Positions 3,054-44,275 of a stretch of 62,595 nucleotides of DNA are shown one piece after another; position 1 is the stretch's first letter, and each line of letters begins with the position of its first letter. This DNA is from Gammaproteobacteria bacterium. Lineage in GTDB: Bacteria > Pseudomonadota > Gammaproteobacteria > Enterobacterales > Alteromonadaceae. The stretch lies in NCBI GenBank assembly GCA_002401725.1, contig NVTW01000009.1, positions 32,258 to 94,852 on the forward strand, given 5' to 3'. The position numbers and the translations under genes are program-made. The notes below the pieces were generated by a model. It searched no databases. It was not told the origin of the DNA and was given only the letters and a program-made list of their open reading frames with translations.

Positions 3054-3090
3054 TGAAAAAACGCATAACTTAATGGTTATGCGTTTTTTT
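3054..3090. terminator. bidirectional-looking intrinsic terminator/attenuator between rpoZ and spoT
   Basis: A-run, ACGCATAAC-ttaatg-GTTATGCGT 9-bp stem, then a T7 run. Confidence 0.5.
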
Positions 3091-3170
3091 ATGACTGTTT
3101 TTTATTGTTTGTGTTGGTATACTCAAAGCAGTGTTTGTCAGCTTTATTTCCTCATTTTCCGGAGTATTCG

Positions 3171-5291
3171 GTGTATCTTTTTGAACCACTAAAAGAATTT
3201 GTTTCAACTTATCTGTCAAAAGTACAAGTTGATTTATTAAAACAAGCTTACCTTGTTGCCCGCGAAGCACACGATGGACAAATGCGATCAAGCGGTGAAC
3301 CCTATATTACTCATCCTGTTGCAGTAGCACACAATCTTGCCAAAATGCACCTTGATCACGAAACCTTAATGGCGGCATTACTGCACGACGTTATTGAAGA
3401 TACTGAAGTAAGCAAAGAAGATTTGGCTAAACTATTTGGCAATACCGTCGCTGAATTGGTTGAAGGGGTAAGTAAACTAGACAAACTAAAATTTAATAAC
3501 AAGGAAGAAATGCAAGCTGAAAACTTCCGCAAAATGTTATTAGCTATGGTGCAAGACATCCGCGTTATTTTGATAAAACTCGCAGATAGAACCCATAACA
3601 TGCGCACTTTAGAGTCGCTTCGTCCTGATAAACGCCGCCGTATAGCGCGAGAAACGCTTGAAATTTATGCTCCCATAGCCAATCGTTTAGGTATTCACGA
3701 CATCAAAAATGAGCTTGAAGTTTTAGGCTTTGAAGCTTTATATCCAATGCGTTCTCGTGCTTTAAAATCAGCGATAAAACAAGCACGCGGTAATCGTAAA
3801 GAAATTATCAATAACATTATGGATGAAGTGCAAACCCGCCTTACTGAAACCGGCATTGACGCACAAGTTATTGGTCGTGAAAAACATTTATATTCTATAT
3901 ATCGCAAAATGTTAAACAAAGAATTAATGTTTAATGAAGTCATGGATATTTATGCCTTTCGAGTCATTGTTAAAGACAAAATTGATGATTGCTATCGCGC
4001 ACTCGGTGCGGTACATAATTTATTTAAGCCAATTGAAACTCGTTTTAAAGACTATATTGCTATTCCCAAAACCAATGGTTATCAGTCGTTACATACCTCA
4101 TTAATTGGCCCGCATGGTATTCCGGTAGAAATTCAAATTCGTACCCAAGACATGGATCAAATGGCCGACAAAGGTGTTGCCGCTCATTGGCTTTACAAAC
4201 AAGACGGTTCAAATACCGGCACCACCGCACAAATGAAAGCGCGCCGCTGGATGCAGAGCTTATTAGAATTACAACAAAGTGCCGGCAGTTCATTTGAATT
4301 TATTGAAAATGTAAAATCTGATTTATTCCCCGAAGAAATTTATGTATTTACTCCCGATGGACGCATTATTGAATTGCCCATGGGAGCTACAGCGGTTGAT
4401 TTTGCTTATGCAGTGCATACTGATGTCGGTAACTCTTGTGTTGGCGTAAAGGTTGATCGTAAGCCTTATCCCTTTAGCCAACCGCTTGATTCTGGTCAAA
4501 CGGTTGAAGTGATCACTTCACCTTCTGCTCGCCCTAATGCAACGTGGTTAAATTTTGTGGTAACCGCGAAAGCTCGTTTGCAAATACGAACTTATTTACG
4601 CTCACGCGAAAAAACTGAATCACACGCACTGGGTTTACGTTTATTAAGCCATGCGTTAGGGGCAACAAAATTAGAAGATATTGAGCAAGAAAAAATAGAT
4701 CAAGTTATTAGTGAAACCGGTAATAACAGCTTTGATGAATTATTGATTAATATTGGTTTAGGTAATGCTTTAAGCATAGGAATAGCGCGACGTTTAACCG
4801 GTGAATTTACTGATGATAAAACATTAGATGATGAAACTGATGACGATAGCAGTAAAGTAAAAATGCCCATAAAAGGCACCGAAGGCATGATGGTAAGTTA
4901 CGGTAAATGTTGTCGTCCAATTCCTGGTGATTCCATTGTTGCCTATTTGAGCCCAGGCAAAGGCTTGATGGTACATCAGCAAGGTTGTCGTAATATTAAA
5001 GGCCATGAGTCAGGCAAATTATTTCCGGTAAAATGGGATAAAGATATAGATCGCGAATTTATTGCCCGTTTACGTATTGTTATTATTAATCATCAGGGTG
5101 CTTTAGCTAAACTAACCAATGTAATAGCGCACTGTGAATCGAATGTACAGTCTTTAAATTCTGAAGAAAAAGACGCTAGTTTATATATCATCAATCTTGA
5201 AATAACTTGTCGAGATCGTATTCACCTTGCTGATATTATTCGAAAAATAAAAGTAATTATTGATGTGCAAAAAATAGTGCGCATTAAATAA
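3171..5291 (+). CDS. spoT: bifunctional (p)ppGpp synthetase/hydrolase SpoT
   Basis: (V)YLFEPLKEFVSTYL…AYLVAREAHDGQMRSSGEPYITHPVAVA parallels the E. coli SpoT N-terminus. HD, RelA/SpoT, TGS and ACT regions are recognisable. GTG 3171 has a GGAG 7 nt upstream. Confidence 0.92.
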   Translation: MYLFEPLKEFVSTYLSKVQVDLLKQAYLVAREAHDGQMRSSGEPYITHPVAVAHNLAKMHLDHETLMAALLHDVIEDTEVSKEDLAKLFGNTVAELVEGVSKLDKLKFNNKEEMQAENFRKMLLAMVQDIRVILIKLADRTHNMRTLESLRPDKRRRIARETLEIYAPIANRLGIHDIKNELEVLGFEALYPMRSRALKSAIKQARGNRKEIINNIMDEVQTRLTETGIDAQVIGREKHLYSIYRKMLNKELMFNEVMDIYAFRVIVKDKIDDCYRALGAVHNLFKPIETRFKDYIAIPKTNGYQSLHTSLIGPHGIPVEIQIRTQDMDQMADKGVAAHWLYKQDGSNTGTTAQMKARRWMQSLLELQQSAGSSFEFIENVKSDLFPEEIYVFTPDGRIIELPMGATAVDFAYAVHTDVGNSCVGVKVDRKPYPFSQPLDSGQTVEVITSPSARPNATWLNFVVTAKARLQIRTYLRSREKTESHALGLRLLSHALGATKLEDIEQEKIDQVISETGNNSFDELLINIGLGNALSIGIARRLTGEFTDDKTLDDETDDDSSKVKMPIKGTEGMMVSYGKCCRPIPGDSIVAYLSPGKGLMVHQQGCRNIKGHESGKLFPVKWDKDIDREFIARLRIVIINHQGALAKLTNVIAHCESNVQSLNSEEKDASLYIINLEITCRDRIHLADIIRKIKVIIDVQKIVRIK

Positions 5292-12843: not shown

Positions 12844-13371
12844 ATGAGTAAGTCTGAAAAACTCACATCGGCTATAGCCAAATCAATAGCCTCTGGAGGT
12901 AGTGTCTTTGATATTGCTGAACTTGCCTATTTTTTAGGTGAGCAGGTAACACCAAAACTTAACAAGTTTTTATCTGATTGTGTTAAAAAGGGCACACTGA
13001 TAAGAGTAGCAAAAGGCATATACACCAGCTCAATTACTCCTCCCGATCTATCAAAAGCACTTTTTAATGTTGCCAAAAAGCTAAGAGCTGATTTTTTTAA
13101 CTATATTAGCCTTGAAAGCCAACTAAGCCATACGGGTGATATATCGCAAATCACCATGGATAGGTTAACAATTATGACTAAAGGAAGAAAAGGAGAATTT
13201 GATACAGTTTACGGTATCGTCGAATTTATTCATACTAAGAAAACCCTAGCGCAATTAGAAAATGATGTGTACTTTGACTTCGATATTAAAATGTTCCGAG
13301 CAAGTACAAGTCGGGCAATAGCGGATCTAAAAGCTTGTCGACGCAATACCCATATGCTGGAGAAAAGTTAA
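12844..13371 (+). CDS. AbiEi-like antitoxin (type IV TA, N-terminal wHTH)
   Basis: VFDIAELAYFLGE…L..CVKKGTLIRVAKGIYTS resembles the AbiEi_4 N-terminal domain. Its stop overlaps the next ATG (TAATG). Confidence 0.55.
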   Translation: MSKSEKLTSAIAKSIASGGSVFDIAELAYFLGEQVTPKLNKFLSDCVKKGTLIRVAKGIYTSSITPPDLSKALFNVAKKLRADFFNYISLESQLSHTGDISQITMDRLTIMTKGRKGEFDTVYGIVEFIHTKKTLAQLENDVYFDFDIKMFRASTSRAIADLKACRRNTHMLEKS

Positions 13372-13739
13372 TGCTATCGCGTTACATCAATCAAATTCTA
13401 AAGCAGCACCCTGAATATGCAGGAATAATCCCTGTGATTGAAAAAGAAATTTTACATCATGACATCATGCATGTTCTCGTAAAGCAAGGAGCCTTACAAC
13501 AGCTAACATTCATTGGTGGAACATCGCTCAGACTCTGTTATAACAGCTCTCGGCTTTCAGAAGATCTAGATTTCAATGGCGGCCATAACTTCAAGCCATC
13601 AGATTTCAATGGACTTGAAAATGATATTCAGCACTACCTTTCAAAAAAACACGAAGTTAAGGTATGGGTAAATAAACCGAATCAAGAAAAACAAGGTAAT
13701 TATCAGACGTCAACTACTTTGGCCGACCGGTCAAGTTAA
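13371..13739 (+). pseudogene. AbiEii/DUF1814 nucleotidyltransferase toxin, N-terminal ~120 aa only (3'-truncated)
   Basis: FIGGTSLRLCYNSSRLSEDLDF matches the nucleotidyltransferase GG[ST]…R.S.D[IL]DF motif. Full-length family members are about twice this size. Confidence 0.6.
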
Positions 13740-13794
13740 TTGTCGCCTAATAATAGACCCTAAAACATTTTGGAGTGCTGAGATTACAGCCAAA

Positions 13795-14205
13795 ATGAGC
13801 GTAGATTTCTGCCAAGAAATATATCCAAGTCAATTATTCCTTGAAGAGGTAAAAAAAGGAGAGCCTTCAAAACAATTTGCCAAAGTAAAAAACAATCACA
13901 ACAATGAAGAGGGCGTCAGTTTTAATTCAGTTAAAATCGGAGCCGCGATACAAATGATCGATGATTGGTATAGTGACGGAGTATCTAAGCCTATACGCGC
14001 TCATGAGTATGGAGCTGATAGCGAATTAATCATTGCACGACGTCCTCCTCAATCTAAACTAGATTTCTATTCATTACTCTCTAACTCTGAAAAGTATTTA
14101 AATGTACTATCGACCGTAAAAAACAACCAAATTCCCCCTGAGATTTTGTATGTTTTTTCTATTCTTATAAAAGGCGGAATGTTTCAAAAAAAGGGAGAAC
14201 ATTAG
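13795..14205 (+). pseudogene. cas7f: Cas7f (Csy3) C-terminal fragment; the frame is open and possibly homologous from ~13750
   Basis: QEIYPSQ…IGAAIQMIDDWY…SKLDFYSLL…ILIKGGMF aligns with PA14 Csy3 QEVFPSQ…IGNALRTIDTWY…QKLDFYTLL…NLIRGGVF. The N-terminal two-thirds of the protein are absent. Confidence 0.75.
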
Positions 14206-14262
14206 TGTGCGTTATTATTTTATGATTCGATTTTTACCGTCCAAGGCAACATCCCTTTATTA

Positions 14263-14820
14263 ATGGGGCGGTGTATTTCAACGTTGCACAACTATATATC
14301 AAAGAATAAAATTCAAGATTTAGGTGTTAACTTTCCGGATTGGTCTGCGTCTTCAATAGTCCAAGTTATTTCTTTCATTCATAAGGACACTAGAACCTTA
14401 GATGACCTTAAAAAGCAGGCTTATTTTATTGATATGCTTGATTGCGGGTTCTTCAAAATAAGTGAGACACTTTTAGTTCCAAGCACTTGCCAGGAAGTTC
14501 GTTTTGTTAGAAATCAGTCAATTTCAAAATTATTTCAAGGCAGTGCTAAAAGGAGGTTAAAACGTATTAAAAAGAGAGCGGAGAGCCAGGGACGTTCTTT
14601 TAATCCCCAAAAAACAATACCTCCAAAAGAAGTCGATATGTTTCATAGAGTTTTAATGAACAGTTCAAGTAATCAACACGATTTTATAATACACATTCAA
14701 AAAGAAAGTAATATGGAAATATCTACACCTTGCTTTAATAGCTATGGTCTTTCAACGAATCAGTTATTTAAAGGAACAGTACCAGACTTATCAAAACTAG
14801 TTTTAGAAAATAATTTTTAG
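14263..14820 (+). CDS. cas6f: Cas6f (Csy4) CRISPR endoribonuclease; the N-terminal strand is encoded in another frame upstream (14207-14263), so probably inactivated
   Basis: STLHNY…LGVNFPDW…VRFVRNQS…AKRRLKRIKKRA…FNSYGLS…GTVP aligns with PA14 Csy4 GKLHQA…IGVSFPDL…RQVSRVQA…ERLRRRLMRR…FTCYGLSKGGFVPWF. Confidence 0.8.
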   Translation: MGRCISTLHNYISKNKIQDLGVNFPDWSASSIVQVISFIHKDTRTLDDLKKQAYFIDMLDCGFFKISETLLVPSTCQEVRFVRNQSISKLFQGSAKRRLKRIKKRAESQGRSFNPQKTIPPKEVDMFHRVLMNSSSNQHDFIIHIQKESNMEISTPCFNSYGLSTNQLFKGTVPDLSKLVLENNF

Positions 14821-14935
14821 ATATTAACCATTGGATCGAAAATAGACTTAAACGAAGAAAAAATGAGGTTTTTTACAAAAAAGAACATGCGGTTCGCATG
14901 AACTTTTAACCAATATGGCTATATTTTAAAACTGA

Positions 14936-15223
14936 ATGGGGGGAATAATGGAGCAAACAAATAAGACTGAGCTAGAAAGTAATGAATCTAATTTTCCAAA
15001 CATGGCGCAGTGTTGCGGGAAGTTTTTTGACGAAAATGAAAAGTCCTATTTATTTTTGACATTAGTTGCTTGGGCTGGCTCAGATATTAAAGCTACAGCC
15101 TGGTTTAAATCTGAGACCATTTCAGCATTTGGCGGTAAAACAGCACTTGAACTTTGCAAAAACAATCAACCAGATGCCGTGATTAAATACATTCGCCACA
15201 TAGAGCAAGGAGGGTTTGCATAG
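14936..15223 (+). CDS. DUF2384 (Xre/MbcA/ParS-type antitoxin C-terminal domain) protein, orphan
   Basis: C-terminus WFKSETISAFGGKTALELCKNNQPDAVIKYIRHIEQGGF fits the DUF2384 pattern (W…lgG.tPlel…g…v…L..ie.G). No RES-type partner follows. Confidence 0.55.
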   Translation: MGGIMEQTNKTELESNESNFPNMAQCCGKFFDENEKSYLFLTLVAWAGSDIKATAWFKSETISAFGGKTALELCKNNQPDAVIKYIRHIEQGGFA

Positions 15224-15293
15224 TGTATTCTTATATATTAAAGCTACAAGTTGAACAGAGCAAAAAAAACTTTCTGATAAGGATGGATATGGT

Positions 15294-15506
15294 ATGAACG
15301 ATGCTGCTAATAATGAAACAGCACAACATGCTATGCAAAAGCTTTTTGACGCCAACGAAAACATGGCAACAATTGCTCTAACTAAAAATGGAGTTGTAGC
15401 GTACCATTTCGGAGAGAACGGTGGGATGGCTATAAATCCAGCGTGGGCAGAAATTGTCATTAACGCTGTTAAAGAACTGTCTAAATTAGAACAGAATGAT
15501 GGGTAA
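15294..15506 (+). CDS. hypothetical 70-aa ORF ending on the first CRISPR repeat (may be leader, not coding)
   Basis: ORF only. The TAA stop at 15504-15506 abuts/overlaps repeat 1. Confidence 0.3.
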   Translation: MNDAANNETAQHAMQKLFDANENMATIALTKNGVVAYHFGENGGMAINPAWAEIVINAVKELSKLEQNDG

Positions 15507-15653
15507 TAACCTGCCGAATAGGCAGCTGAAAATTATAATACCATTACATCATATCGAAAAACAATATGAACTACCGAATAGGTAGCTGAAGAAAAAAACA
15601 ATCGATTCGAAGTTTATGTAAACCATAACCCTGCCGAACAGGCAGGAAAAGCC
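15506..15653 (+). CRISPR. mini CRISPR array, type I-F-like: 3 repeats (28 nt) and 2 spacers (32 nt)
   Basis: R1 ATAACCTGCCGAATAGGCAGCTGAAAAT (15506-15533). S1 TATAATACCATTACATCATATCGAAAAACAAT. R2 ATGAACTACCGAATAGGTAGCTGAAGAA (15566-15593). S2 AAAAACAATCGATTCGAAGTTTATGTAAACCA. R3 TAACCCTGCCGAACAGGCAGGAAAAGCC (15626-15653). Stems start at 15511, 15571 and 15631, an exact 60-nt period. The core resembles the I-F repeat GTTCACTGCCGTATAGGCAGCTAAGAAA. Confidence 0.8.
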
Positions 15654-15680
15654 TTTTATATGGAATTAATAGGCTTTTTG
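15647..15680 (+). terminator. rho-independent terminator closing the array transcript
   Basis: AAAAGCCT (15647-15654) pairs with AGGCTTTT (15671-15678), followed by a T-run. Confidence 0.55.
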
Positions 15681-15717
15681 TAATTTTATTACATCCAACA
15701 AATAGATAGCAAACCAA

Positions 15718-15822
15718 TTTGTCAAAGTATGGTTAAGTAGTTTTGACAACGTATGGGTTTATAGGTTTTGTAAGTCATTGTTTTATAACACCGCCATTTG
15801 ACAGAGTATGGATTTAGCTACA
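15718..15822. mobile_element. Tn7-like transposon left end (three TnsB-type binding repeats, terminal …ACA)
   Basis: TTTGTCAAAGTATGGTTAA (15718-15736), TTTGACAACGTATGGGTTT (15742-15760), TTTGACAGAGTATGGATTT (15797-15815), then AGCTACA ending at 15822. Read inward this is TGTAGCTAAATCCATAC…, the Tn7-family 5'-TGT tip with dispersed left-end-type sites. Confidence 0.62.
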
Positions 15823-15893
15823 AAAAACATCACAATTTTAGATGAGAATGCTGCTAATTCTCATTTCGCTCTTTATTAGGAACATTTTACCGT

Positions 15894-17821
15894 ATGCGCG
15901 TTTCCACCTTTTCTCGTTTATCTGCGATTGCCATAGGCATTTTTATCATTCTTTTTATTGGTACTATGTATCAAATTTCTACTACGCTAACAAAAAGTAA
16001 AATTCAACTCGCTAATTATCAACAATTAAAATCATTAGCGACCATTGACTTTTATCGTACTATTGCAATTTATTTGCAGCATGGTGACGCCAGTTTACTC
16101 AATAAAGCTGAACATCAGCTTGACCGTATTATTAATATTACAGCACGTATTGGTATTAAATCGTTCGAACAAAACTTAAATATCCAAGTGATTCAATTAA
16201 AAAGGGATTTAAAACAAAAATTTCGTGCTATGGGTAAATTAAGTGGTGATCCATATATTTTAATCAAGAACAACGAACAAGGTCTGATCTCGTTAAATAC
16301 TGAACTGCAAAACTACGCACAAAACAGTACAGAACTGGCCAGTAAAGAACAAAAAGTATATCTTAATATCACTCAAAATATCGCCAAGCAATACTTCACG
16401 CCAGAGAACACTTATTTTCAACTAAATCCATAGATACCCGTGATATTGATAATAAAATAACTCAACTAATAGTACTAATATCCCAATTAAAGAAGTTACC
16501 TCTGCTCGGTATCTACCCTGCCGTAGAAAATGATGATGATGAATTATTACTTGGTGAAGAAGATAATAGCGATCTGAGTGAAGATGCAATAAACGAACTA
16601 TCCTCTTTAGCACAGCGTTATCATGGTGAAATTGCTAATACCATCAAGCTCACTTCTCAAAAACGAAATGGTTTAGAATTATTAACAAGTTCTGTAGCGG
16701 CTATTGAACACTACATCCTACAAGCGGAAAAAGAAATAAATCAACAACAAGATCACGTAAATCAACTATTAAAATCTATAATCAGCGTTTTATTGGCATT
16801 TCTCATTGTTTTTCTTGCGTCAAATTATGGGCTAATGCGTTCAGTAGTACTTAACCCTTTACGTAAATTACGCGACAGTTTTGTTCAACTTGATCAACAA
16901 GGACAAGTAGATAACATTTTGGGGATCAATCCAAAAACTGAATTGGGACAAATTGCTAGTAGTTTTAATAAATTAGTCAACAAACTTGCTGAAGATGATA
17001 AACAAAAAGCTCATCAACTCAATTTAGTTTCGAATGCTTTACAGTCAATGGAAAATCAAGCTGAGCATATCCTTCACTCGTCACACAGTACTACCGGACA
17101 CCTTAGCGATGTTCGCACCATAATGACCACACTAACCACAGTTACCAATACGGTAAGTGCCTTGTCTCAGCAAGTAGTTGACAATGCCCAAGCTACACAA
17201 CTAGCCATGACTAAAAGTCAATCTCAAGTAAATCAAGTGATTGCAGCAAGTAATTCTACCAATGTTGCGACCATTTCTGCGCAAAAATCTATTCAATCTT
17301 TAGGCGATTCTGTCGACAGTGTCAGTAGTATTGTTGGTGTGATCAGCGCTATAGCCGATCAGACAAATTTACTCGCCTTAAATGCCGCCATTGAAGCGGC
17401 GCGAGCGGGTGAACATGGTCGTGGTTTTTCGGTGGTTGCTGACGAAGTAAGAAAATTAGCAGGTAAAACTCAGGAATCATTACAGCAAGTCAGTAAACGT
17501 TTAGAAAATTTACAAACTGCTAGCCAAGCTTTAGAAAATAACATGCAAGGAATAGAGCAAGCGTCTAGTCAGCAGCAAACAATTTCACAACAACTAAAAA
17601 ACAATGCTGAAGAGGTACTAAATCAAGCGCTAACCTCAGCTTCTGTTGCCCATACTACAATGCAGCATATTACCAATCAGCAACAGCAATTCATTAGTTT
17701 TGAGTCGGCCATCAACAAAGTAAATAACGAAGTAAATCAATCCAGTGATCTGGCTAAAAACATTTCTAATGATGTTGTACGCCAAGTTAGTGACATAAAT
17801 CAAACCTTGATTGTTGCTTAA
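15894..17821 (+). pseudogene. methyl-accepting chemotaxis protein interrupted by one frameshift (or a sequencing error)
   Basis: The N-terminal TM and sensor ORF stops at 16433. The frame carrying TM2/HAMP/signalling domain (…[32 protein letters not shown]…) is open from 16367 and continues to 17821. Confidence 0.8.
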
Positions 17822-20096: not shown

Positions 20097-20573
20097 ATGC
20101 GTGCTGCTGGCTGCTATCAAGCAGATTCAGTGTTTTATACTGGTAAACGTTATGCTCGCGCCGCAAAATTTAGTACCGATACCAAAGACATATTGACTAA
20201 AATACCTTTAGTTCATAGTGAAAACCTATTCAACATTAAAACAGCTAACATGAGAATAGTTTGTGTCGATTTAGTTGAAGGAGCTACACCCTTACCTGAA
20301 TATAAACACCCAAAGCATGCTCTATACATTTTTGGACCAGAAGATGGCAGCATAGATCAATCAATAATAGATCAAGCTGATGATATTGTTTACGTACCTA
20401 CCATAGGTTGTATGAACTTAGCAGCAAGTGCAAATGTGGTGCTGTATGATCGGTTAGCTAAAATGCCAACTTTAGAAGTAAGCGGTGATGAGTTAATTAA
20501 AAAAAGTAGAGATACAAATAATAAAACTAAGGTAAAGGTTTTTATTGGGATAATAAAGAAGCCGGAACAGTAA
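20097..20573 (+). CDS. SpoU/TrmH-family RNA methyltransferase (the conserved N-terminal motif lies upstream of the first ATG)
   Basis: YIFGPEDGSI and PTIGCMNLAASANVVLYD are SpoU motifs 2 and 3. The in-frame upstream stretch (20019-20096) encodes VFIGLINPKSPSNVGSV, which is motif 1, but has no canonical start. Confidence 0.75.
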   Translation: MRAAGCYQADSVFYTGKRYARAAKFSTDTKDILTKIPLVHSENLFNIKTANMRIVCVDLVEGATPLPEYKHPKHALYIFGPEDGSIDQSIIDQADDIVYVPTIGCMNLAASANVVLYDRLAKMPTLEVSGDELIKKSRDTNNKTKVKVFIGIIKKPEQ

Positions 20574-20595: not shown

Positions 20596-20680
20596 TGGTG
20601 GAGGGAGGTGGATTCGAACCACCGAAGGCGGAGCCGTCAGATTTACAGTCTGATCCCTTTGTCCACTCGGGAACCCCTCC
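20596..20680 (-). tRNA. tRNA-Tyr (GUA), type II with long variable arm, CCA encoded
   Basis: The reverse complement GGAGGGGTTCCCGAGTGGACAAAGGGATCAGACTGTAAATCTGACGGCTCCGCCTTCGGTGGTTCGAATCCACCTCCCTCCACCA folds as a cloverleaf. The anticodon loop is CTGTAAA. It is very similar to E. coli tRNA-Tyr. Confidence 0.95.
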
Positions 20681-24524: not shown

Positions 24525-25049
24525 TTATTTAATTGTTTGTGCGCGTTCTAATTCAGAACTAAACGGCTTAATAACAAATTCTTCTTTTTGACTAATGCTT
24601 ATACCCGGAATATTAAGAGCAACGTCTTTTTCATTAAGCAAAGCCGGTTTATCAATTTCTTGCTTATCACGAAGAAACCGATTTAATCCTAATGACTTAA
24701 TCATTTTGATCACAGCGTCAACGCCTTTTACAGAAACTTTAGGCGGGGTAACTCGCCAACTAATTTCGCCCGTACTTAATTTTGCTGTTTTTGCATCACC
24801 TTTCAGCATATTTAAACGATTAACAGAACAATAAGCTTGCACACCATTAAATAACTCATTTATCTTGTCATTTAATGGCTTAGCTTGAGTTTCAAACTCT
24901 TTTTTAATAACGGTAAGTTTGTCATTCATTGTCCCTTCTAAAACATCAACTTGGCGATCTAACTCCCCTATTTGTTGAATAAATTCTTCTACCTCTAATA
25001 AGCTTAATGCTGCCGGTAAATCAGTTGCTTTAATACGTTTTGTAGCCAT
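24525..25049 (-). CDS. gam: Gam-like host-nuclease inhibitor
   Basis: Coiled N-terminus followed by KTAKLSTGEISWRVTPPKVSV…NRFLRDKQEIDKPALL, the Mu Gam family pattern. Confidence 0.82.
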   Translation of the reverse strand: MATKRIKATDLPAALSLLEVEEFIQQIGELDRQVDVLEGTMNDKLTVIKKEFETQAKPLNDKINELFNGVQAYCSVNRLNMLKGDAKTAKLSTGEISWRVTPPKVSVKGVDAVIKMIKSLGLNRFLRDKQEIDKPALLNEKDVALNIPGISISQKEEFVIKPFSSELERAQTIK

Positions 25050-25069: not shown

Positions 25070-26215
25070 TTAAACTTTATGAACTAATTTTTCAGTAATT
25101 TTTGTTTCGCCTATGTGTGCTGCCGCATTCATGACCCGGGCAAGCCAAGAATTTATTGACAGCGGATAACTTAAATCGGTAGGCATATCGGGTTGATGGC
25201 TGTTTAAACCCATTTGCGTTCTACCCGCGCATTTACCGCGAATAGCATGAATGGCATCTACAGTAAAAATAGTGCTGGCATCAATACCAACCGACTTGAA
25301 TTTATGCGCCACATAATCGGGTAAATCTCTACCCAATGGTTGCACTGTTAATTGATTACAGCGCCAGGCAAATTCACGCACATAACTACCTTGCAATATT
25401 TTTTTAAGTTCGGTTTGACCAATTAATACCACCCCCATCACCCGAGAAAACCCAGCGGTTAATTCCCAAATGCGTTTGATCAACTTAATAACCGAAGTGG
25501 GTAAATCGTGTGCTTCGTCAATAATTAAAATATGTTGTTTGCCAATACCCGCCGACTCAACCAAGGCATCTTCAATCATGGCATCACGCTGCTCACTACT
25601 CATGCCACCATTTTTAAGCTCTAATGCTCTACAAATAGCTTGGCTAATACCTTCGGCGGTTATTTTTTTGCGATCTAAACGGCGTGGCTCAATAATAATG
25701 AGATCAGGGTTTTTAGTGCGCATTTGCTCTATAAACAAACGGCGCAATATGGTTTTGCCGCTACCACATTCCCCTATTAACGCGATCATTGAACCCGCAT
25801 GTGCAGCCGTGTTCATTTCTTCTAACAACATACGATTATGACGAGTTAAAAAAACGTCGTGCACCGTTTGTATTTCATTTTGAAACGGATCACGTTTTAA
25901 GTTAAAAAACTCACGAGTAGCCATAGTTAACATTTCAATCTCCAATTCTTCAGTTTCATTCGTTGACTCATTATTTTTTTTGACGGCTAATTGCTGTTTA
26001 AATAATCCTCGCAACAACTCACTACTAGCCCCTTGTTTTTGTAAATAGCTTTTGATCTGCGTTTTAGTTTTGGTTACATCACAGTTTTTTGGCCATTGGT
26101 TATAATTAATTATCCGGCTAATGCTAGATGCGCTTAACGAACCCGTTAATTTTTTTGCTAGTGTTACTTGCTTAATACTTAACTGGTTTAATACAAACCC
26201 CAAATGAAGTGCCAT
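25070..26215 (-). CDS. MuB-like AAA+ transposition ATPase
   Basis: N-terminal HTH, Walker A GECGSGKT, Walker B ILIIDEAH. It sits directly downstream of the transposase. Confidence 0.85.
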   Translation of the reverse strand: MALHLGFVLNQLSIKQVTLAKKLTGSLSASSISRIINYNQWPKNCDVTKTKTQIKSYLQKQGASSELLRGLFKQQLAVKKNNESTNETEELEIEMLTMATREFFNLKRDPFQNEIQTVHDVFLTRHNRMLLEEMNTAAHAGSMIALIGECGSGKTILRRLFIEQMRTKNPDLIIIEPRRLDRKKITAEGISQAICRALELKNGGMSSEQRDAMIEDALVESAGIGKQHILIIDEAHDLPTSVIKLIKRIWELTAGFSRVMGVVLIGQTELKKILQGSYVREFAWRCNQLTVQPLGRDLPDYVAHKFKSVGIDASTIFTVDAIHAIRGKCAGRTQMGLNSHQPDMPTDLSYPLSINSWLARVMNAAAHIGETKITEKLVHKV

Positions 26216-26232: not shown

Positions 26233-28032
26233 TTATTTAACAATTCTTATTTTCGTTACTGGTGTCGGTTCTAAGCCAACTTGCAGCTGCTCTAAAATAG
26301 TTTCAATCGCACTTTCATCAACCTGCAAACCGTCTAAATAATTAGTTTCAATTTTAGACAGTGGTCGGTCTAACTCACTCGCTATACGCATTTTTAAATC
26401 TAAACTGTCGAGTGCTTTTAATGGTTTTTTCTCCAATTCGCCTAACGATATTTTTTCACCTTTTGGCGAAATAAATTCAGGATTATTAATGTTTTGTAAA
26501 TGGCTTAACGAATTTAAACCACCGCTGGGCAGCGAAGAAAAAGGTTGAACTTTTTTTAATTTGGCTTTTTTAATGTCTTCATCAGACAAATTTGGAAACG
26601 CTGTTTTATCCGCAATTTTGGCTTGTTTATCAACTACCGTATCAGCACGTTGAACAAAGTTTTCACCCACCACAGGGGCGTCAACTCTAAAACCGGCTTC
26701 ATCAAATGCTAGCGGCAATACTTCATGAATTAATTCTTGTTTATTAAAGTCGGTCACTCGTATCAGCGCCGCACAGCTATCGCCCATTAAAACAGGGCTA
26801 ACGCTTACTTGCAGATTTATATATATGTTAGCTAAATCACTTACGTCATAGGTTAATGTCGCTTTTGCTTTGGGGTGGCGAAGCGTAACGGTTAAATCAT
26901 TTTTAACCGTGCGTATTTTAGGTTCATTACTGAGCAAATAACGACACAGTTTTTCATCGGGCAAGGCTTTTAAATGAGCAATAAAATTGACTTGCATAAT
27001 TTTTTGCCAACATTCAAATCGCGCCATTTTATGGCGTCCATGAATTGAATTGTAACCAGGTATAGTATTAGCGTTATACGCTATCTGCCATGCTTTAACT
27101 CTAGTATTTAACTCAGCAACGCTATTAACAGGCTCAAGTAAAATACGGCTTTCAAACAGTTTTTCAACCATATCATTGCCCTTTTCAACTTGTCCTTTAG
27201 CACGCGAATGTTTTACCGCGTGGGCAATGGGTTTAACGTGCAATTGTGGCAAGGCTTGCGCTAGTGCTTTCGAAGTATTAGCACTGCCTTTATCCCACAC
27301 TAAAATATCAGGGGTACCATGAAATGGATTGCCGGTTTTAACTCCCCAGCACCATAATAAAAATTCATATAACACCGCTGTACTTTCACCTGCGGTGGCA
27401 AAATAACGTACCGCAATAACATCACTAAAGTGATCGGTTAAAACATAACGCCATACCCGTAAATGTTTAATTTTTTCTAAGTTCGCTGGTTTGTTGGCAT
27501 AAAATTCGTCTTCACTGGCGTAGTGTTGCACCTTGCCTTTTTGACAACCCGGTGGGTAATACAATAAACAAATAGACGGATCAACCTGATGCACATGGTT
27601 AGGATATAAACTGCGTTGTTGCACATGAGGCCTATCTTTAGCAAGTTGCTTTGCCGTAGCCTGTTGCTGGCGTAACAAGCGATTAATAGTACTATTGCTT
27701 TTCATTTTGTAACCATTAGCCACCAAAATAGAGGCCATATTAGGTGTTTCCATAATTTGCTTACCATTGGCTCTAACGCCTGTACGTAAACCTGCTTTAA
27801 GCAAATCGAGTGCAGCTTGATCTTGGCTGGTGGTACCAGCATCACAACGTTTTTTTCTGCCTGCGTTCCAGCCTACTTTTTTAAGCTGGTTATAAAATTT
27901 GTCTTTGGTCCAATCAAAAAAATGTAATGCTTCATTAATAATCATCCCTTTTTCACCATAGCCCGCTTCAGTTAAGCGTTGAGCATAACGACATAGTTCA
28001 TCATAATGAGGCATCATTTGAGCAGTAGACAT
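26233..28032 (-). CDS. MuA-like DDE transposase
   Basis: The rve-type catalytic core is recognisable (HQVDPS; ILVWDKGSANTS; AKGQVEKGN). 599 aa. Positioned upstream of the MuB-like gene. Confidence 0.88.
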   Translation of the reverse strand: MSTAQMMPHYDELCRYAQRLTEAGYGEKGMIINEALHFFDWTKDKFYNQLKKVGWNAGRKKRCDAGTTSQDQAALDLLKAGLRTGVRANGKQIMETPNMASILVANGYKMKSNSTINRLLRQQQATAKQLAKDRPHVQQRSLYPNHVHQVDPSICLLYYPPGCQKGKVQHYASEDEFYANKPANLEKIKHLRVWRYVLTDHFSDVIAVRYFATAGESTAVLYEFLLWCWGVKTGNPFHGTPDILVWDKGSANTSKALAQALPQLHVKPIAHAVKHSRAKGQVEKGNDMVEKLFESRILLEPVNSVAELNTRVKAWQIAYNANTIPGYNSIHGRHKMARFECWQKIMQVNFIAHLKALPDEKLCRYLLSNEPKIRTVKNDLTVTLRHPKAKATLTYDVSDLANIYINLQVSVSPVLMGDSCAALIRVTDFNKQELIHEVLPLAFDEAGFRVDAPVVGENFVQRADTVVDKQAKIADKTAFPNLSDEDIKKAKLKKVQPFSSLPSGGLNSLSHLQNINNPEFISPKGEKISLGELEKKPLKALDSLDLKMRIASELDRPLSKIETNYLDGLQVDESAIETILEQLQVGLEPTPVTKIRIVK

Positions 28033-36954: not shown

Positions 36955-37518
36955 ATGAGCCGTTCAAGTCTAGATCAAATACCCAGTGAAGCCAAAGCAT
37001 GGCTTGATCAAGAACTAAAAGATCGGGGTTTTGCGGGTTACGACGAATTAGAACAATTATTAAACCTAAAGCTAGCCGAGCACGGTTACGAGTTATCTAT
37101 ATCTCGTGCTGCATTAGGTCGCTACGGTAAAGCGAAAAAAGATGCGCAACAGCAATTATTACGCTCAATTGAAATGGCTAAATCGCTCAATGAAATATCT
37201 GAAGATGAAGCCGATGCCTTAGGTATGGCAAATACCGCGTTTGCCCAAAGCACTTTGCTCGATTTACAAATGAAAGCGCAAGAGCTTGCTGATCTTGATC
37301 CAAAAGAACTTAGCGCTAAAACTACTTTGATCACCAAGCTCATTCATTGTGCCGCCGATGTTGCTCGCGCGTCTACTAGTCAAAAAAAATGGGCGAACGA
37401 AGTAAATACCCGCATCCGTAAAGCGCAAGAAACCGCCGAAACCATCGGTAAAAAAGGGGGTTTATCGCAAGGTAATATCGAATTAATTCGCCAAGCTATC
37501 GGTAAAGCGAGACTGTAA
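36955..37518 (+). CDS. terminase small subunit-like protein (Mu gp27, DUF3486)
   Basis: MSRSSLDQIPSEAKAWLDQEL…SISRAALGRYGK matches the DUF3486 pattern. ATGA coupling to the large subunit. Confidence 0.72.
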   Translation: MSRSSLDQIPSEAKAWLDQELKDRGFAGYDELEQLLNLKLAEHGYELSISRAALGRYGKAKKDAQQQLLRSIEMAKSLNEISEDEADALGMANTAFAQSTLLDLQMKAQELADLDPKELSAKTTLITKLIHCAADVARASTSQKKWANEVNTRIRKAQETAETIGKKGGLSQGNIELIRQAIGKARL

Positions 37519-39101
37519 TGAATAAAACAATGAATCAAGCAATGAATCAAGTGGCGACTAAGCACAAAATATCGCCGGTAAGCGAAGCGGTAAGTGAATC
37601 GTTATTACTCGACTATCAAATCGACTGGACCGAAGATACCGCGCAAGTAAAACTGTGCCAAAAATCTCGTCGTGTGGGTCTTAGTTGGGGCGAAGCGGAA
37701 GACGCAACCCTTATTGCCGCCTCTGAAAAATCGGCCGGCGGTATGGACGTTTGGTACATTGGTTATAACCAAGACATGGCAAAAGAGTTTATTCGCGATG
37801 TGGCTAATTGGGCGCGCGCTATCAATATGGTGTGTGATGATCCTACTGAACAAATACTCATTGAAGAAAAAAAAGACATACTGACTTATGTTATTACCTT
37901 TGCCAGTGGTTTTCGGGTTACTGCATTAAGTTCACGCCCAGCCAATTTACGCGGTAAACAAGGGTTAGTCATTATTGACGAAGCCGCGTTTCATGATGAT
38001 TTACCGGGGCTAATAAAATCGGCAATGGCGCTACTTATTTGGGGCGGTAAAGTACGTATTATCAGCACCCACAATGGTGAAGACAATTATTTTAATCAGC
38101 TCATTAAAGAATGTTTAGCGGGTAAAAAGCCTTATTCGGTGCATACCATTACGTTTATGGACGCTATTCGCCAAGGGCTATACCAGCGTATTTGTAAAAT
38201 GCTTGGTCATCAATGGAGCCAACAAGCTGAAGATGAATGGGTACACGGTGTTTATGACTTTTACGGCGAAGATGCCGCTGAAGAATTAGACGTAATTCCC
38301 TCCTCGGGTAGTGGTGTTTATATTGGTCGATTTCTGGTTGAACGGTGTCAAAGCGATTTATGCGCAGTAGTCGCGCTTAAAAAAGAAGATAAATTTGTTA
38401 CCAACCCCAAACGCATCAAAATAATTAACACTTGGTGTAAAGATGTTTTAAAGCCTATTTTAGCTGATCTTGATCCACAAGCGCGTAGCGTATTCGGACA
38501 AGATTTTGGCCGTAGCGGTGATTTATCAACTATTGATGTTAAGCAAAAAGTAAGCAGCATTGCATGGCATACGCCGTTAATTGTTGAGCTGCGTAATATT
38601 CCGTTTGACTGCCAACAACATATTTTATTTTATATTATTGATCATCTACCGCATTTTTTTCACGGCAAATTAGACGCGCGTGGCAATGGTCAAGCGCATG
38701 CCGAAGCCGCGTTACAAAAATATGGTGAAGCGCGTATCGATTGTGTAATGTTTTCTCGCCCCTGGTACGCAGAACATTTTCCTAAATATAAAGCCGCGTT
38801 TGAAGGACAACATTTAACGGTACCCAACAGTGAAGATTTTTTAAGTGATCATCGCCGCGTGGTGCTCGACAAAGGTACACCACGCATGGATGACAAACAC
38901 GATAAAGGGATCGATGGGGGTCAACGCCATGGTGATACGGCGGTAAGTGGTGTACTTGCCTGGGCAGCGACTAATGAAGAGGGCGAACCCGGTGCAGGTA
39001 AAACTATTGACGAACAAGATCATCAAGACACCTATCGCCCTGGCAATATGAAAAATCGTCGTGGTGTCGTCAGTCTGTTTGGTCGTTTATTTGAACGATA
39101 A
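37518..39101 (+). CDS. terminase large subunit (Mu gp28-like)
   Basis: LLLDYQIDW…CQKSRRVGLSWGEA and VIIDEAAF (Walker B). Size and position fit. Confidence 0.85.
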   Translation: MNKTMNQAMNQVATKHKISPVSEAVSESLLLDYQIDWTEDTAQVKLCQKSRRVGLSWGEAEDATLIAASEKSAGGMDVWYIGYNQDMAKEFIRDVANWARAINMVCDDPTEQILIEEKKDILTYVITFASGFRVTALSSRPANLRGKQGLVIIDEAAFHDDLPGLIKSAMALLIWGGKVRIISTHNGEDNYFNQLIKECLAGKKPYSVHTITFMDAIRQGLYQRICKMLGHQWSQQAEDEWVHGVYDFYGEDAAEELDVIPSSGSGVYIGRFLVERCQSDLCAVVALKKEDKFVTNPKRIKIINTWCKDVLKPILADLDPQARSVFGQDFGRSGDLSTIDVKQKVSSIAWHTPLIVELRNIPFDCQQHILFYIIDHLPHFFHGKLDARGNGQAHAEAALQKYGEARIDCVMFSRPWYAEHFPKYKAAFEGQHLTVPNSEDFLSDHRRVVLDKGTPRMDDKHDKGIDGGQRHGDTAVSGVLAWAATNEEGEPGAGKTIDEQDHQDTYRPGNMKNRRGVVSLFGRLFER

Positions 39102-41917: not shown

Positions 41918-44275
41918 ATGAAGCCGAAATTATTGCCCATAACCCTTGGCTATCGCGGCACTATTGCCGTGCTTGAAGCTGCGGCTACTGAGTACGAAAC
42001 CATTATTAACATGGTGCGCAAAGCGTTGGCGGGTCATCTTTATCCTACCGAAAAACATCCTTGGGTATCGCTCGAAGCCATTTATGCCAATGAAGCGGTA
42101 ATTCGCCATCAAGGTAAGTTGTTTTCGTTTGCTTACAGCTTAAATGACAACAACCAAGTGCAACTGGGTCAAGCCAAAGAAGTGGTTAAAAGTTATCAAC
42201 CGGTGCAAGCCACCAATGTAACTGAAGCGGTTGCCGAAGGTACCTTAATGGATGTTATTGAAGCGGATGCAACCACCACTAAAGGCACCCGTTGGTTAGT
42301 GCGCGTAATTGAAGCGGGTATCAGTAAAAATGGCAATAATTACCCCGCTAGCGTACTTAAAACAGCAACCCCCATGTTCAACGGGGTGTGTGTCTATGAA
42401 AAATCAGACGCAGAGCACTTAGCTAAAAAAGGAAAATCATTTAAAAATCTCATTGGCGGTTTACAAAACGCGCAATTTGTTGAAGCGACCAAAACCGAAC
42501 CCGCTTTTATTCAAGCAGAGCTTAATGTGCTTGAAGCGGCAGGCAATACCGCTAAAAAAATGTTGGAACTTTACCAACGCAACATGGCTGACTTATTTGG
42601 TTTTTCTATTGATGCGTTTGTTAAACCAAAACGCACCATAATTGCCGGTAAACGGGTAGTAGAAGCCACAAAATTCACCAAAATTAATTCACTTGATCTT
42701 ATTATCGAACCCGGTGCAGGTGGCTCGGTAATTAATGTTTTAGAAGCAACAGAGGATAAAACCATGCTTAAACAATTACTCGAAGCCCTAGCCGCAAAAC
42801 GTCAAGATTTACTTGATAAAATTGATCCTGAAAACGAAACCCAAGTATTAGAAGCTTACAACACTATGATCGCAGCAGAGTCTGCAGGTGATGATGGCAG
42901 TGGTGCTACGTCGGGCGAAAATACCGATGCGGGTGGTCAACAACAAGTGGCCGAAGCTAACGGCAATACTGATCCGTTAAATACCGGCAATACTAATGCC
43001 AATAATGTTGATATGGCCGCAGTAGTGCGTACCTTAGAAGCACGACAAAGCGCACGTACGTTAATTGTTGCTAGTGGTTTACCGCAAGTGTCACAAACGC
43101 GTTTAATTGCCAGCATTGACGGCGATTTAAATGTGACTGAAGCCAATGCCAAAGAATTAATTACGTCTGAAAAAGACTACTTGGCCAGTATCACCCGTAG
43201 CGGTCAAGTTAATATGGGTAATGTCGGCAGTGTTAACAATGGCGCTAGCGATGGCAGTACGCAAATGCTTGAAGCCTTGTTTAATCCTGAAGACCGTACC
43301 GTAATGAGTATTCGAGAATGTTATTTAGCCTGTACCGGTGACACTAATTTTACCGGTCAGTTAACTCGTAATGTGCAAGCACGAATGACAGAAGCACTGG
43401 ATACTACGTCGCTGAGTAATGCCATGGGTCAAGCCATGCATAAACGCATGATGGACTTGTACAAACAGAGCTCTATTTACGATGCTTGGCGTTTATTGGT
43501 TGATGTTGTTTCGGTTAATGACTTTAGAAATCAAGAGCGTATATCAATTGGTGGTTACGGTGATTTGGTGGCGGTGGCTGAAAAAGGCGCTTACCCTGCG
43601 ATGACTTCACCCACGGATGCTAAAGAATCGTACGCGGTAAGTAAACGCGGTGGCACAGAAACGATCACTTTAGAAATGATCGCGAATGATGACATGGGGG
43701 TTATTCAGCGCATCCCGATGAAAATGGTCCGTGCCGCAAAACGTACTTTAGCCAAATTTGTATTTAACATGTTTGTGACCAATCCATTGATGGCCGACGG
43801 TAGCAATGTTTTTCATGCGACTCGCAGTAACTTAGGTACAGCGGCTTTAAATGCAGCCGGTATTGCGGCAGTACGGTTACACTTTTTAAAACAGCAAGAA
43901 CCGGGCAGTGGTGAAGAGCTTGGTTTAATTTTGAAAAACTTACTGGTGCCAGCCGACTTAGAGCAAGCAGCATATGACTTGTTTAAACGCGACACTAACA
44001 ACGATGAAACCTTTATTCAAACGCTAAAACCTAACATTATTCCTATTCCTGGTTGGGTAGATGCTAACGATTGGGTAGCCACGGTTGATAAAAATGACCA
44101 ACCGATGATCGAGTTAGGCTTTTTCAGAGGACGTGAAGAACCCGAGTTGTTTGTACAAGACGCGGAAACGCACGGCAGTATGTTCGCTAATGACCAAATT
44201 ACTTACAAACTTCGCCATATTTACGGTGGTGCATTCTTGAGCTCGTTAGGTGTGTACAAAAACGTCGTTATTTAA
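41918..44275 (+). CDS. fused scaffold/protease-like domain + HK97-fold major capsid protein
   Basis: 785 aa. N-terminal RWLVRVIEAGISKNGNNYPASVL… module, Ala/Gly/Asn-rich linker, capsid-like C-terminal half. A strong terminator follows. Confidence 0.6.
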   Translation: MKPKLLPITLGYRGTIAVLEAAATEYETIINMVRKALAGHLYPTEKHPWVSLEAIYANEAVIRHQGKLFSFAYSLNDNNQVQLGQAKEVVKSYQPVQATNVTEAVAEGTLMDVIEADATTTKGTRWLVRVIEAGISKNGNNYPASVLKTATPMFNGVCVYEKSDAEHLAKKGKSFKNLIGGLQNAQFVEATKTEPAFIQAELNVLEAAGNTAKKMLELYQRNMADLFGFSIDAFVKPKRTIIAGKRVVEATKFTKINSLDLIIEPGAGGSVINVLEATEDKTMLKQLLEALAAKRQDLLDKIDPENETQVLEAYNTMIAAESAGDDGSGATSGENTDAGGQQQVAEANGNTDPLNTGNTNANNVDMAAVVRTLEARQSARTLIVASGLPQVSQTRLIASIDGDLNVTEANAKELITSEKDYLASITRSGQVNMGNVGSVNNGASDGSTQMLEALFNPEDRTVMSIRECYLACTGDTNFTGQLTRNVQARMTEALDTTSLSNAMGQAMHKRMMDLYKQSSIYDAWRLLVDVVSVNDFRNQERISIGGYGDLVAVAEKGAYPAMTSPTDAKESYAVSKRGGTETITLEMIANDDMGVIQRIPMKMVRAAKRTLAKFVFNMFVTNPLMADGSNVFHATRSNLGTAALNAAGIAAVRLHFLKQQEPGSGEELGLILKNLLVPADLEQAAYDLFKRDTNNDETFIQTLKPNIIPIPGWVDANDWVATVDKNDQPMIELGFFRGREEPELFVQDAETHGSMFANDQITYKLRHIYGGAFLSSLGVYKNVVI

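Follow-up and report, generated by a model that had tools for sequence, protein, structure and literature searches.

In the window, by which we mean the whole 62.6-kb stretch of DNA that was analysed, core genes (spoT, trmH, recG, ubiE, ubiJ and ubiB, the last ending at 12178) lie upstream of a short CRISPR array that is preceded by remnants of cas genes. Between ubiB and the first of these remnants there is an 86-aa ORF (orf86), an intact abiEi gene and the N-terminal third of abiEii (13335-13739). The window from approximately 21 to 62.6 kb is a Mu-like prophage, 5 kb from the array, which itself lies outside the prophage. The features of the array region are as follows.

13795-14205, plus strand: C-terminal fragment (136 aa) of cas7f (csy3), matching positions 215-328 of 328 in Pfam Cas_Csy3 and 219-341 of 341 in TIGR02566.
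14207-14820, plus strand: cas6f (csy4) pseudogene with a 1-nt frameshift, matching TIGR02563 (5e-22, profile positions 19-182 of 184).
14936-15223, plus strand: orf95, a small conserved accessory ORF with a weak Xre/MbcA/ParS C-terminal match (PF09722, E = 3.5e-4, below the curated cut-off).
15294-15506, plus strand: orf70, a short ORF that is conserved in L148 and L068 (86-89% identity), with its stop codon TAA at 15504-15506.
15506-15533, plus strand: repeat R1, a near-typical I-F3 repeat with ATA replacing GTG at positions 1-3, stem CTGCC/GGCAG and a typical 3' handle, CTGAAAAT.
15534-15565, plus strand: spacer S1, 32 nt, in a variable slot.
15566-15593, plus strand: repeat R2, an atypical penultimate repeat with A-U for G-C at pair 3; its 3' handle CTGAAGAA would become the 5' handle of the S2 crRNA.
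15594-15625, plus strand: spacer S2, 32 nt, conserved, the homing guide against the rsmJ 3' end (...KKNRFDVYV...).
15626-15653, plus strand: repeat R3, an atypical terminal repeat that has lost GTG, whose stem CTGCC/GGCAG can be lengthened to 6 bp and whose positions 21-28 form the 5' arm of the terminator.
15647-15686, plus strand: intrinsic terminator, AAAAGCCU...AGGCUUUU followed by a U-run, directly after the R3 hairpin.
15715-15822, plus strand: Tn7-like left end with three TnsB-type sites (15715-15739, 15739-15763 and 15794-15818; core TTTGWCANNGTATGG) and the terminus ...TTTAGCTACA at 15822.
15823-15827, plus strand: putative left-end copy of a 5-bp target-site duplication (AAAAA), deduced from L001 (ATAAA) and from L025, where the site is empty.

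The array (15506-15653) comprises three 28-nt type I-F repeats and two 32-nt spacers, with the same letters as had been quoted in an earlier note on this DNA. A repeat finder placed the repeat starts at 15506, 15566 and 15626, with start-to-start distances of 60 and 60. The repeats are R1 = ATAACCTGCCGAATAGGCAGCTGAAAAT, R2 = ATGAACTACCGAATAGGTAGCTGAAGAA and R3 = TAACCCTGCCGAACAGGCAGGAAAAGCC, with stems CTGCC/GGCAG, CTACC/GGTAG and CTGCC/GGCAG, respectively, and all three are atypical in the subclade to which the window belongs. All three form a hairpin with a stem of 5 bp and a loop of 5 nt (-8.2, -6.6 and -12.3 kcal/mol for R1, R2 and R3; 0/200 shuffles were as stable), and an artificial single mutant of R2 that sets CTACC against GGCAG reaches only -1.9 kcal/mol. 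Folding of the region 15490-15700 returned the three repeat hairpins together with the terminator helix (z = -5.0). Rfam searches at gathering thresholds gave no match at the array region. The claim of the earlier note that the three repeats differ and that a double change keeps the hairpin was borne out, since the letters match and all three repeats fold. Its description of R3 as the most degenerate, terminal repeat also held: GTG is lost and positions 21-28 are replaced. The handle sequences that it listed are correct and their names have to be exchanged: the 5 nt before a stem become part of the 3' handle of the preceding crRNA, and the 8 nt after a stem are the 5' handle of the next. The final A of the orf70 stop codon is at the same time the first base of the array, which thus has no separate leader.

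The cas genes 5' of the array are damaged. Window positions 13751-14827 align by blastn to 9530-10607 of L001 (on contig ERZ27299780 k119_74323), one of the related loci described below, with 88.7% identity; the homology begins abruptly at 13751, in mid-cas7, which places a deletion junction at approximately 13740-13751. The GTG start of cas6f at 14207 encodes VRYYFMIRFLPSKA (its first 14 codons) in another frame than the remainder of the gene. A 1-nt deletion at approximately 14248-14250 (one A of GCAAAC) leaves a 185-aa ORF (14263-14820) that is without the first beta-strand. Intact Cas6 relatives of 199-204 aa read ...FLPSKANIPLLMGRC, and at the deletion the intact reading is ...SKANIPLLMGRC. 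The Cas6f hairpin proposed in the earlier note is in keeping with this cas6f gene, which is 690 bp upstream and matches TIGR02563 at 5e-22. For the full-length Cas6 homologue P0005, the best matches among solved structures are all Cas6 subunits of TniQ-Cascade complexes (6pif, 6v9q). The protein encoded by orf95 is 86-88% identical in L146, L148, L014 and L068 and 50% identical in L001. Comparison of the window with the intact locus L148 gave dN/dS values of 0.11-0.70 with very uneven pS, which do not date the decay.

The 5' arm of the terminator is made of positions 21-28 of R3, and an equivalent hairpin followed by a T-run stands after R3 in L003, L017 and L011-L013. The left end contains three copies of a TnsB-type motif of approximately 25 bp and terminates in ...GCTACA at 15822. 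In a position weight matrix (PWM) scan of both strands, each of the three sites scored more than 30 bits, and no other position in the window exceeded 11.6. The same left end is present in L001, L068 and L148. The matching inverted terminus, TGTAGCTAAACCCATAC...TGTCAAA, forms a right end beside rsmJ in L048. In the window, the PWM scan of both strands found no right-end sites. The chromosomal flank leading to an MCP gene lies 3' of the duplication position.

Homologues of the window's Cas6 form a tight clade of 86-92% identity and a wider clade of 43-56% identity. Four of the related loci (L001, L003, L008 and L146) contain tniQ, a fused cas8/5 gene (701 aa), cas7 and cas6, and neither cas1 nor cas2/3 was found within 10 kb in the relatives, a gene set that identifies the operon as that of type I-F3 CASTs; the fetched loci are too short to reach tnsABC. 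The homology between the window and L001, whose element is an intact relative of the window's, breaks and then resumes from R2 through the element terminus. Beyond the end of the L001 element there is an ORF that begins MRVSSFSRLS..., like the MCP gene of the window, so the two insertions are probably orthologous. The AbiE genes and orf86 were considered as cargo of the element and were present in no fetched relative. Contigs from the window's own population all show the same decayed state, and exact-protein look-ups with UbiB and the downstream flavoprotein returned only contigs in that state.

The two spacers behave very differently among the relatives. A scan of 185,579 species genomes (GTDB) with the core of S2 gave eight matches, and in 8/8 the match occupies the final spacer position of a short array, with a degenerate repeat and a terminator behind it. 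S2 is also the last spacer in L001, L003, L008, L014, L068 and L148. It closes at least 13 related arrays, which come from Shewanella, Pseudoalteromonas and Alteromonadaceae, and is identical across five clade members (0/32 variable columns). The S1 slot, in contrast, holds three unrelated spacers among five clade members (29/32 columns vary).

The target of S2 came from the relatives. At two Shewanella loci a gene end just upstream resembles S2, and the gene encodes RsmJ (NF008012, 2e-108). L025 represents an empty site, where an rsmJ-family gene directly precedes a homologue of the window's MCP gene; the 3' end of this rsmJ matches S2 at 25/32 positions, with mismatches at 3, 6, 12, 18, 27, 30 and 31. 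L048, which was found by a metagenome scan with the terminal inverted repeat, has an rsmJ protospacer that matches S2 at 24/32 positions. Its mismatches are confined to positions 6, 12, 15, 18, 21, 24, 27 and 30, all of them wobble positions and five of them sixth positions. The right end of L048, TGTAGCTAAACCCATACCTTGTCAAA, has three packed sites, begins 49 nt past the rsmJ protospacer and carries the same terminal inverted repeat. The flank outside the left end of L001 aligns to the rsmJ-MCP intergenic spacer of L025, which implies a 5-bp duplication 45 nt after the protospacer and a right end approximately 50 bp away; the spacing seen in relatives is thus 49 nt (L048) and ~50 bp (L001 flank against L025). 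In the window, tblastn detected no rsmJ, its only match being S2 itself. The earlier note had proposed a check for a CC PAM and a conserved gene 3' end. The gene end was found in rsmJ; the dinucleotide at the PAM position of the rsmJ protospacers is TG or CT and not CC. I-F systems prefer CC, and relaxed PAM use has been reported for I-F3 systems.

From these sequence comparisons we identify S2 as the homing guide of an rsmJ-targeting sub-branch of the type I-F3b CRISPR-associated Tn7-like transposons (CASTs). The array is short, has 28-nt I-F repeats and 32-nt spacers, ends in a spacer that matches the gene at the attachment site and flanks that spacer with atypical repeats. The suggestion in the earlier note that atypical repeats mark a privileged homing guide is therefore true of S2, as Petassi et al. 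2020 report for I-F3b. Its further suggestion that either spacer could be such a guide stood for S2 and fell for S1, which occupies a variable slot and for which no target was found. Searches of 50,697 phage and 72,556 plasmid records with S1 by blastn gave only matches with E >= 0.9 from unrelated hosts, and pattern scans that left the sixth positions free gave zero matches in IMG/VR and in metagenome contigs. S1 fits an exchangeable slot for a typical guide, judging by its variation among relatives. A match to S1 within the window (20198-20229, in a SpoU-like ORF, 24/32 positions) was equalled in 0/400 shuffles at first, and larger null sets gave p ~0.01-0.02 per spacer. We treated it as a chance match: it is flanked by AC, shows no wobble or sixth-position pattern of mismatches and has no transposon end nearby.

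The double change in the R2 stem was examined against 34 distinct repeats of related elements, where standard pairing is kept in 170/170 stem cells. At pair 3, 31 repeats have G-C, two distinct sequences have G·U (R2 of L001 and L068, which are identical to each other, and R2 of L014) and R2 of the window has A-U. Pair 4 is C-G everywhere except in R2 of L148 (CTGTC/GACAG), where it is U-A, a second and independent double change. Two pairs are therefore changed on both sides, and such covariation is reached in 1/500 column shuffles. An initial covariation test that left out L148 was not significant (60/500 shuffles), and significance came with the L148 event. Although the stem-loop part of R2 is the most variable repeat segment (9/20 positions vary), it is always paired; the R2 handle varies at 1/8 positions and S2 at 0/32.

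On these comparisons we regard the double change as a true compensatory event. Selection on structure holds for the lineage, because the G·U pair in intact elements is the expected intermediate. The earlier note, which had seen selection on RNA structure in the double change, was thus right as regards the lineage, given the G·U intermediate, the L148 event, the 170/170 paired cells and the 1/500 shuffles. For the source genome itself, the G-to-A change in the window is no proof that selection has continued after the decay of the cas genes. This change is one of four differences clustered in the first 8 nt of R2, beside the replaced S1, and the background divergence between the window and L001 is approximately 11%; it may have come with a recombination tract rather than as a selected point mutation. 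The series G-C, G·U and A-U at pair 3, together with C-G to U-A at pair 4, all in functional-looking arrays, amounts to a natural experiment on the substrate rules of I-F3 Cas6f. The invariant S2 and the GAAGAA that closes its 5' handle mark the part of the guide that is protected by selection.

The CAST in the window is a broken, immobile and non-autonomous remnant. A deletion joined the truncated abiEii to mid-cas7, and cas6f is frameshifted; of the CAST operon, only this cas6 and the last 136 aa of Cas7 are left. Within the 62.6-kb window we found no tniQ, cas8/5, tnsABC, right end or rsmJ. Tn7-type elements have several TnsB-binding sites at their ends, TGT...ACA terminal inverted repeats and a 5-bp target-site duplication. 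Of these ends, the window has the left one, with its three sites and ACA terminus, and the right one is absent. A trio of ORFs of tnsABC size on the minus strand (28931-25070; 297, 599 and 381 aa) was considered as a tnsA-tnsB-tnsC candidate and rejected. According to PHROGs, the 599-aa product is a Mu-like transposase and the 381-aa product a MuB-like ATPase. For the 297-aa ORF the only match is to a phage family of unknown function (phrog_4623), and a Gam gene lies immediately downstream of the trio. We infer that the array is an inherited remnant no longer able to act in cis.

Taken together, these observations make us highly confident that the mini-array is the left-end guide-RNA cassette of a type I-F3b CAST of the rsmJ-homing sub-branch, present here as a fossil. 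The most serious competing explanation, which we nevertheless consider unlikely, is that the array still functions in trans: Cas6 and Cascade would come from a different locus of the genome, either an additional I-F3 CAST or a canonical I-F1 system, and the relic would go on yielding usable S1 and S2 crRNAs. In its favour, neither the three hairpins nor the S2 handle nor the terminator is damaged, orf95 and orf70 are still open, and the R2 stem of the window is fully paired rather than disrupted. However, the 62.6 kb contain no other cas gene, and a search with Cas7 returned no second Cas7f attributable to the source MAG, which is weak negative evidence. Furthermore, I-F1 systems reportedly cannot use atypical repeats (Petassi et al. 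2020), and the relic, having no right end, would be immobile even if it were guided. An entirely different role, that of a repeat-mimicking decoy (an RNA anti-CRISPR-like unit or a solitary mini-array on a mobile element) directed against host I-F systems or competing elements, appears very improbable. RNA anti-CRISPRs are repeat-like hairpins of phages or plasmids that usually lack functional spacers. The array is indeed short, is not accompanied by a working cas operon and sits within a mobile-element remnant with a Mu-like prophage 5 kb away. Against this, the same array with the same S2 is an integral part of intact CASTs, the conserved homing spacer targets a host gene end that serves as the attachment site and not a competitor, S1 matches no phage or plasmid, and the array is not located in the prophage.

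The similarity of the repeat to the I-F consensus and the adjoining csy3 and csy4 fragments would also suit a remnant of a canonical type I-F1 immune array unrelated to transposition. Canonical I-F1 arrays have cas1 and cas2/3 beside them, cas8f and cas5f as separate genes, and repeats of uniform sequence. The I-F1 reading is effectively refuted by the orthologous loci, which have tniQ and a fused cas8/5 (701 aa) and lack cas1 and cas2/3 within 10 kb, and by the Tn7-type end that follows an array in which all three repeats differ. It is also contradicted by S2, a conserved self-targeting guide for rsmJ with a right end 49 nt away in L048, and by the structural matches of P0005 to Cas6 subunits of TniQ-Cascade. 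As for hairpins that arose by chance or as REP-like palindromes outside any CRISPR context, their small copy number is the single point in favour, and we consider the idea already refuted. The hairpin motif is unique to the array within the window, apart from one chance match with three mismatches at 56421, the phasing is exactly 60 nt, cas genes adjoin, and homologous arrays occur in many genomes, at least 13 other loci among them. The earlier note had argued against chance similarity, and correctly so; the dispersed REP-like hairpins that it named as a refuting outcome were not seen in the window.

Under the preferred explanation, that of an rsmJ-homing CAST cassette, we take anatomy, conservation pattern, target, spacing and structural constraint from the loci themselves, and processing and transposition activity from the literature on the family. 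In the intact relatives, the array would be transcribed, probably by read-through from the unit that contains the cas genes, orf95 and orf70, and the pre-crRNA would stop at the terminator fused to R3. Cas6f would bind each hairpin (5-bp stem, 5-nt loop) and cut at its 3' base. The resulting S2 crRNA is predicted to be 5'-CUGAAGAA + 32 nt + UAACCCUGCCGAACAGGCAG-3', with CUGAAGAA as the 5' handle and the 3' hairpin provided by R3. Loaded into TniQ-Cascade (Cas8/5, Cas7 and Cas6), this crRNA would pair with the last codons of rsmJ, where the wobble positions of the codons would align with the unpaired, every-sixth positions of the guide. TnsABC would then insert the element, with its right end leading, at a point approximately 50 bp downstream and directly beyond the rsmJ stop codon. 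The S1 position would receive replaceable guides that target other mobile DNA. On either side of S2, the atypical repeats would keep the shape of the Cas6 hairpin and not its sequence.

Cassettes of this type are already known, and the window locus is a decayed addition to them, with details that are tidy and unsurprising to a specialist. For the rsmJ sub-branch of I-F3b, Petassi et al. 2020 describe arrays that always end in the att-site spacer, with atypical repeats on both sides of it and a terminal repeat from which GTG and positions 21-28 are gone; codon wobble positions coincide there with sixth positions. Elements that target rsmJ have been listed as Tn7479 (Psychromonas sp. RZ5), Tn7480 (Colwellia polaris) and approximately 44 from Shewanella (Petassi et al. 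2020; Roberts et al. 2022, PMC9723613; PMC12452197). The window locus shares with these the 3' end of rsmJ as the att gene, a last, self-targeting spacer, a short array and atypical repeats. It also resembles rsmJ-homing I-F3b CASTs in its CUGCC/GGCAG type of hairpin, in the position of the array at the left end beside TnsB sites and in the tniQ-cas8/5-cas7-cas6 operon of its relatives. It differs from them in its truncated cas7, its frameshifted cas6 and its missing tniQ, cas8/5, tnsABC, right end and rsmJ. Its subclade as a whole differs in that none of the three repeats is typical and the stop codon of a conserved ORF of 70 aa marks the beginning of the array.

Tn6900 of Aeromonas salmonicida S44, also an I-F3b element, has a terminal att-site spacer and atypical repeats as well, and its att guides have been shown to work, to accept many mismatches and to be reserved for the Cascade of the transposon itself (Petassi et al. 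2020). In contrast to the window copy, Tn6900 is intact and experimentally tested, and it uses ffs as the attachment site. With Tn6677 of Vibrio cholerae, a guaC-homing I-F3a element, our locus would share the use of TniQ-Cascade and TnsABC and an insertion ~48-50 bp from the protospacer, and the Tn6677 Cas6 structures (6pif, 6v9q) match the Cas6 of the window's clade. However, Tn6677 belongs to the I-F3a branch, has its att guide after a gap in the array and is Xre-regulated, and no privatization by atypical repeats was found for it (Petassi et al. 2020). The canonical I-F1 system of Pseudomonas aeruginosa (Csy, with Csy4/Cas6f) has the same 28-nt repeat, 32-nt spacer and 5-bp stem-loop for Cas6f, whereas the window locus is without cas1 or cas2/3, carries a guide that targets the host chromosome and ends in a Tn7-type end.

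These findings leave the current understanding of CAST biology unchanged. Their value for annotation is that a seemingly orphan array of three repeats from an uncultured gammaproteobacterium could be recognized as the homing cassette of an rsmJ-CAST. They also illustrate that CASTs can decay in place and leave the guide cassette and left end intact. The rsmJ sub-branch is extended by a divergent subclade, whose Cas7 is at most 62% identical to that of the next named relatives, and L001, L146 and L148 can be mined for variants of use in genome engineering.

One more speculative idea, to which we give a low probability, is that R2 may be under selection to alter its sequence and yet keep the shape of the Cas6 hairpin, which would point to a continuing "privatization" that shields the homing guide from co-resident I-F systems. 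It is based on two independent compensated stem changes and a G·U intermediate within ~11-15% DNA divergence, and on the contrast between the stem-loop of R2 (9/20 positions variable) and the neighbouring S2 (0/32). A related idea is that left-end fossils with a guide might persist near att sites by still acting, for example through Tn7-style target immunity or through supply of the guide in trans. Other left-end fossils with the homing guide are the Shewanella relics L015 and L016, which abut rsmJ.

Two small open reading frames occupy the space between cas6 and the array:

14936-15223, orf95 (95 aa)
15294-15506, orf70 (70 aa)

Both share the motif K(F/L)FD(E/A)NE, and orf95 additionally gives a weak match to the Xre/MbcA/ParS C-terminal domain. 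In two related CAST loci (L148 and L068), both reading frames are 86-89% identical to those of the window. Two further loci, L146 and L014, keep orf95 at 86-88%, with orf70 either interrupted by the contig end or split, and a homologue of orf95 with 50% identity is found in L001. When the region 13795-15506 was compared with L148, synonymous divergence proved very uneven: 0.42 for the cas7 fragment, 0.15 for cas6, and 0.07-0.09 for orf95 and orf70. Because of this unevenness, sequence comparison suggests a mosaic, recombining history for the clade.

Two abiE genes border the deletion junction:

12844-13739, abiEi (assigned by NCBIfam) followed by a truncated abiEii

The abiEi gene is whole (NCBIfam, 4e-63). 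The abiEii reading frame ends after approximately 130 residues, directly against the cas7 fragment; thus, the deletion that killed the CAST also truncated the abiEii toxin gene. Neither abiEi nor abiEii, both possible CAST cargo, was found among the relatives examined.

Tiny remnants of homing cassettes are seen in Shewanella. In Shewanella sp. Isolate11 (L015) and Shewanella sp. DAU334 (L016), a repeat, the homing spacer and a terminal repeat lie immediately past the rsmJ stop codon, with the relics contained within ~80 nt around this codon and with no cas genes near either cassette. In the DAU334 relic, what is left of the repeat loop contains the rsmJ stop codon TAG. CAST homing cassettes can thus persist as very small fossils at the attachment site itself.

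For spacer S1, which occupies the variable slot of the array, the best match within the window covers 24 of 32 positions (20198-20229) and falls inside an open reading frame of the SpoU-type methylase family (20097-20573). The flank of this match is AC, and its mismatches follow neither a sixth-position nor a wobble pattern. We estimated the chance of such a match at 1-2% per spacer, and it is probably a coincidence. The first 9 nt of the homing spacer S2 (AAAAACAAT, 15594-15605) recur at the 3' end of S1 (...CGAAAAACAAT, 15555-15565), which could be due to chance in AT-rich sequence or could be a recombination trace left by replacement of S1.

The gene adjoining the element end encodes a methyl-accepting chemotaxis protein and is read as two open reading frames in different frames (15894-16433 and 16793-17821), apparently split by a frameshift near 16400-16430. 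The identical split is present in contigs from the same population that span the junction, namely L006 and, by gene calls, L005, L007 and L021. The closely related, intact-looking element of L148 is followed beyond its left end (3054-3262) by sequence unrelated to the window's flank; therefore, the same type of element adjoins a different neighbour there. In L014, from an Alteromonadaceae MAG, the left end of the element (978-1150) has two TnsB-type sites, not three, and shows a gap of 55 bp when aligned with the window, L001, L068 and L148.

The right two-thirds of the window (21000-62595) are occupied by a Mu-like transposable prophage that starts near a tRNA gene; among its genes are those for a transposase, a MuB-like ATPase, Gam, and the terminase, capsid and tape measure proteins:

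20599-20680, minus strand, tRNA near the prophage start
24525-25049, 25070-26215 and 26233-28032, minus strand, example prophage genes
37518-39101, 41918-44275 and 47961-50804, plus strand, example prophage genes
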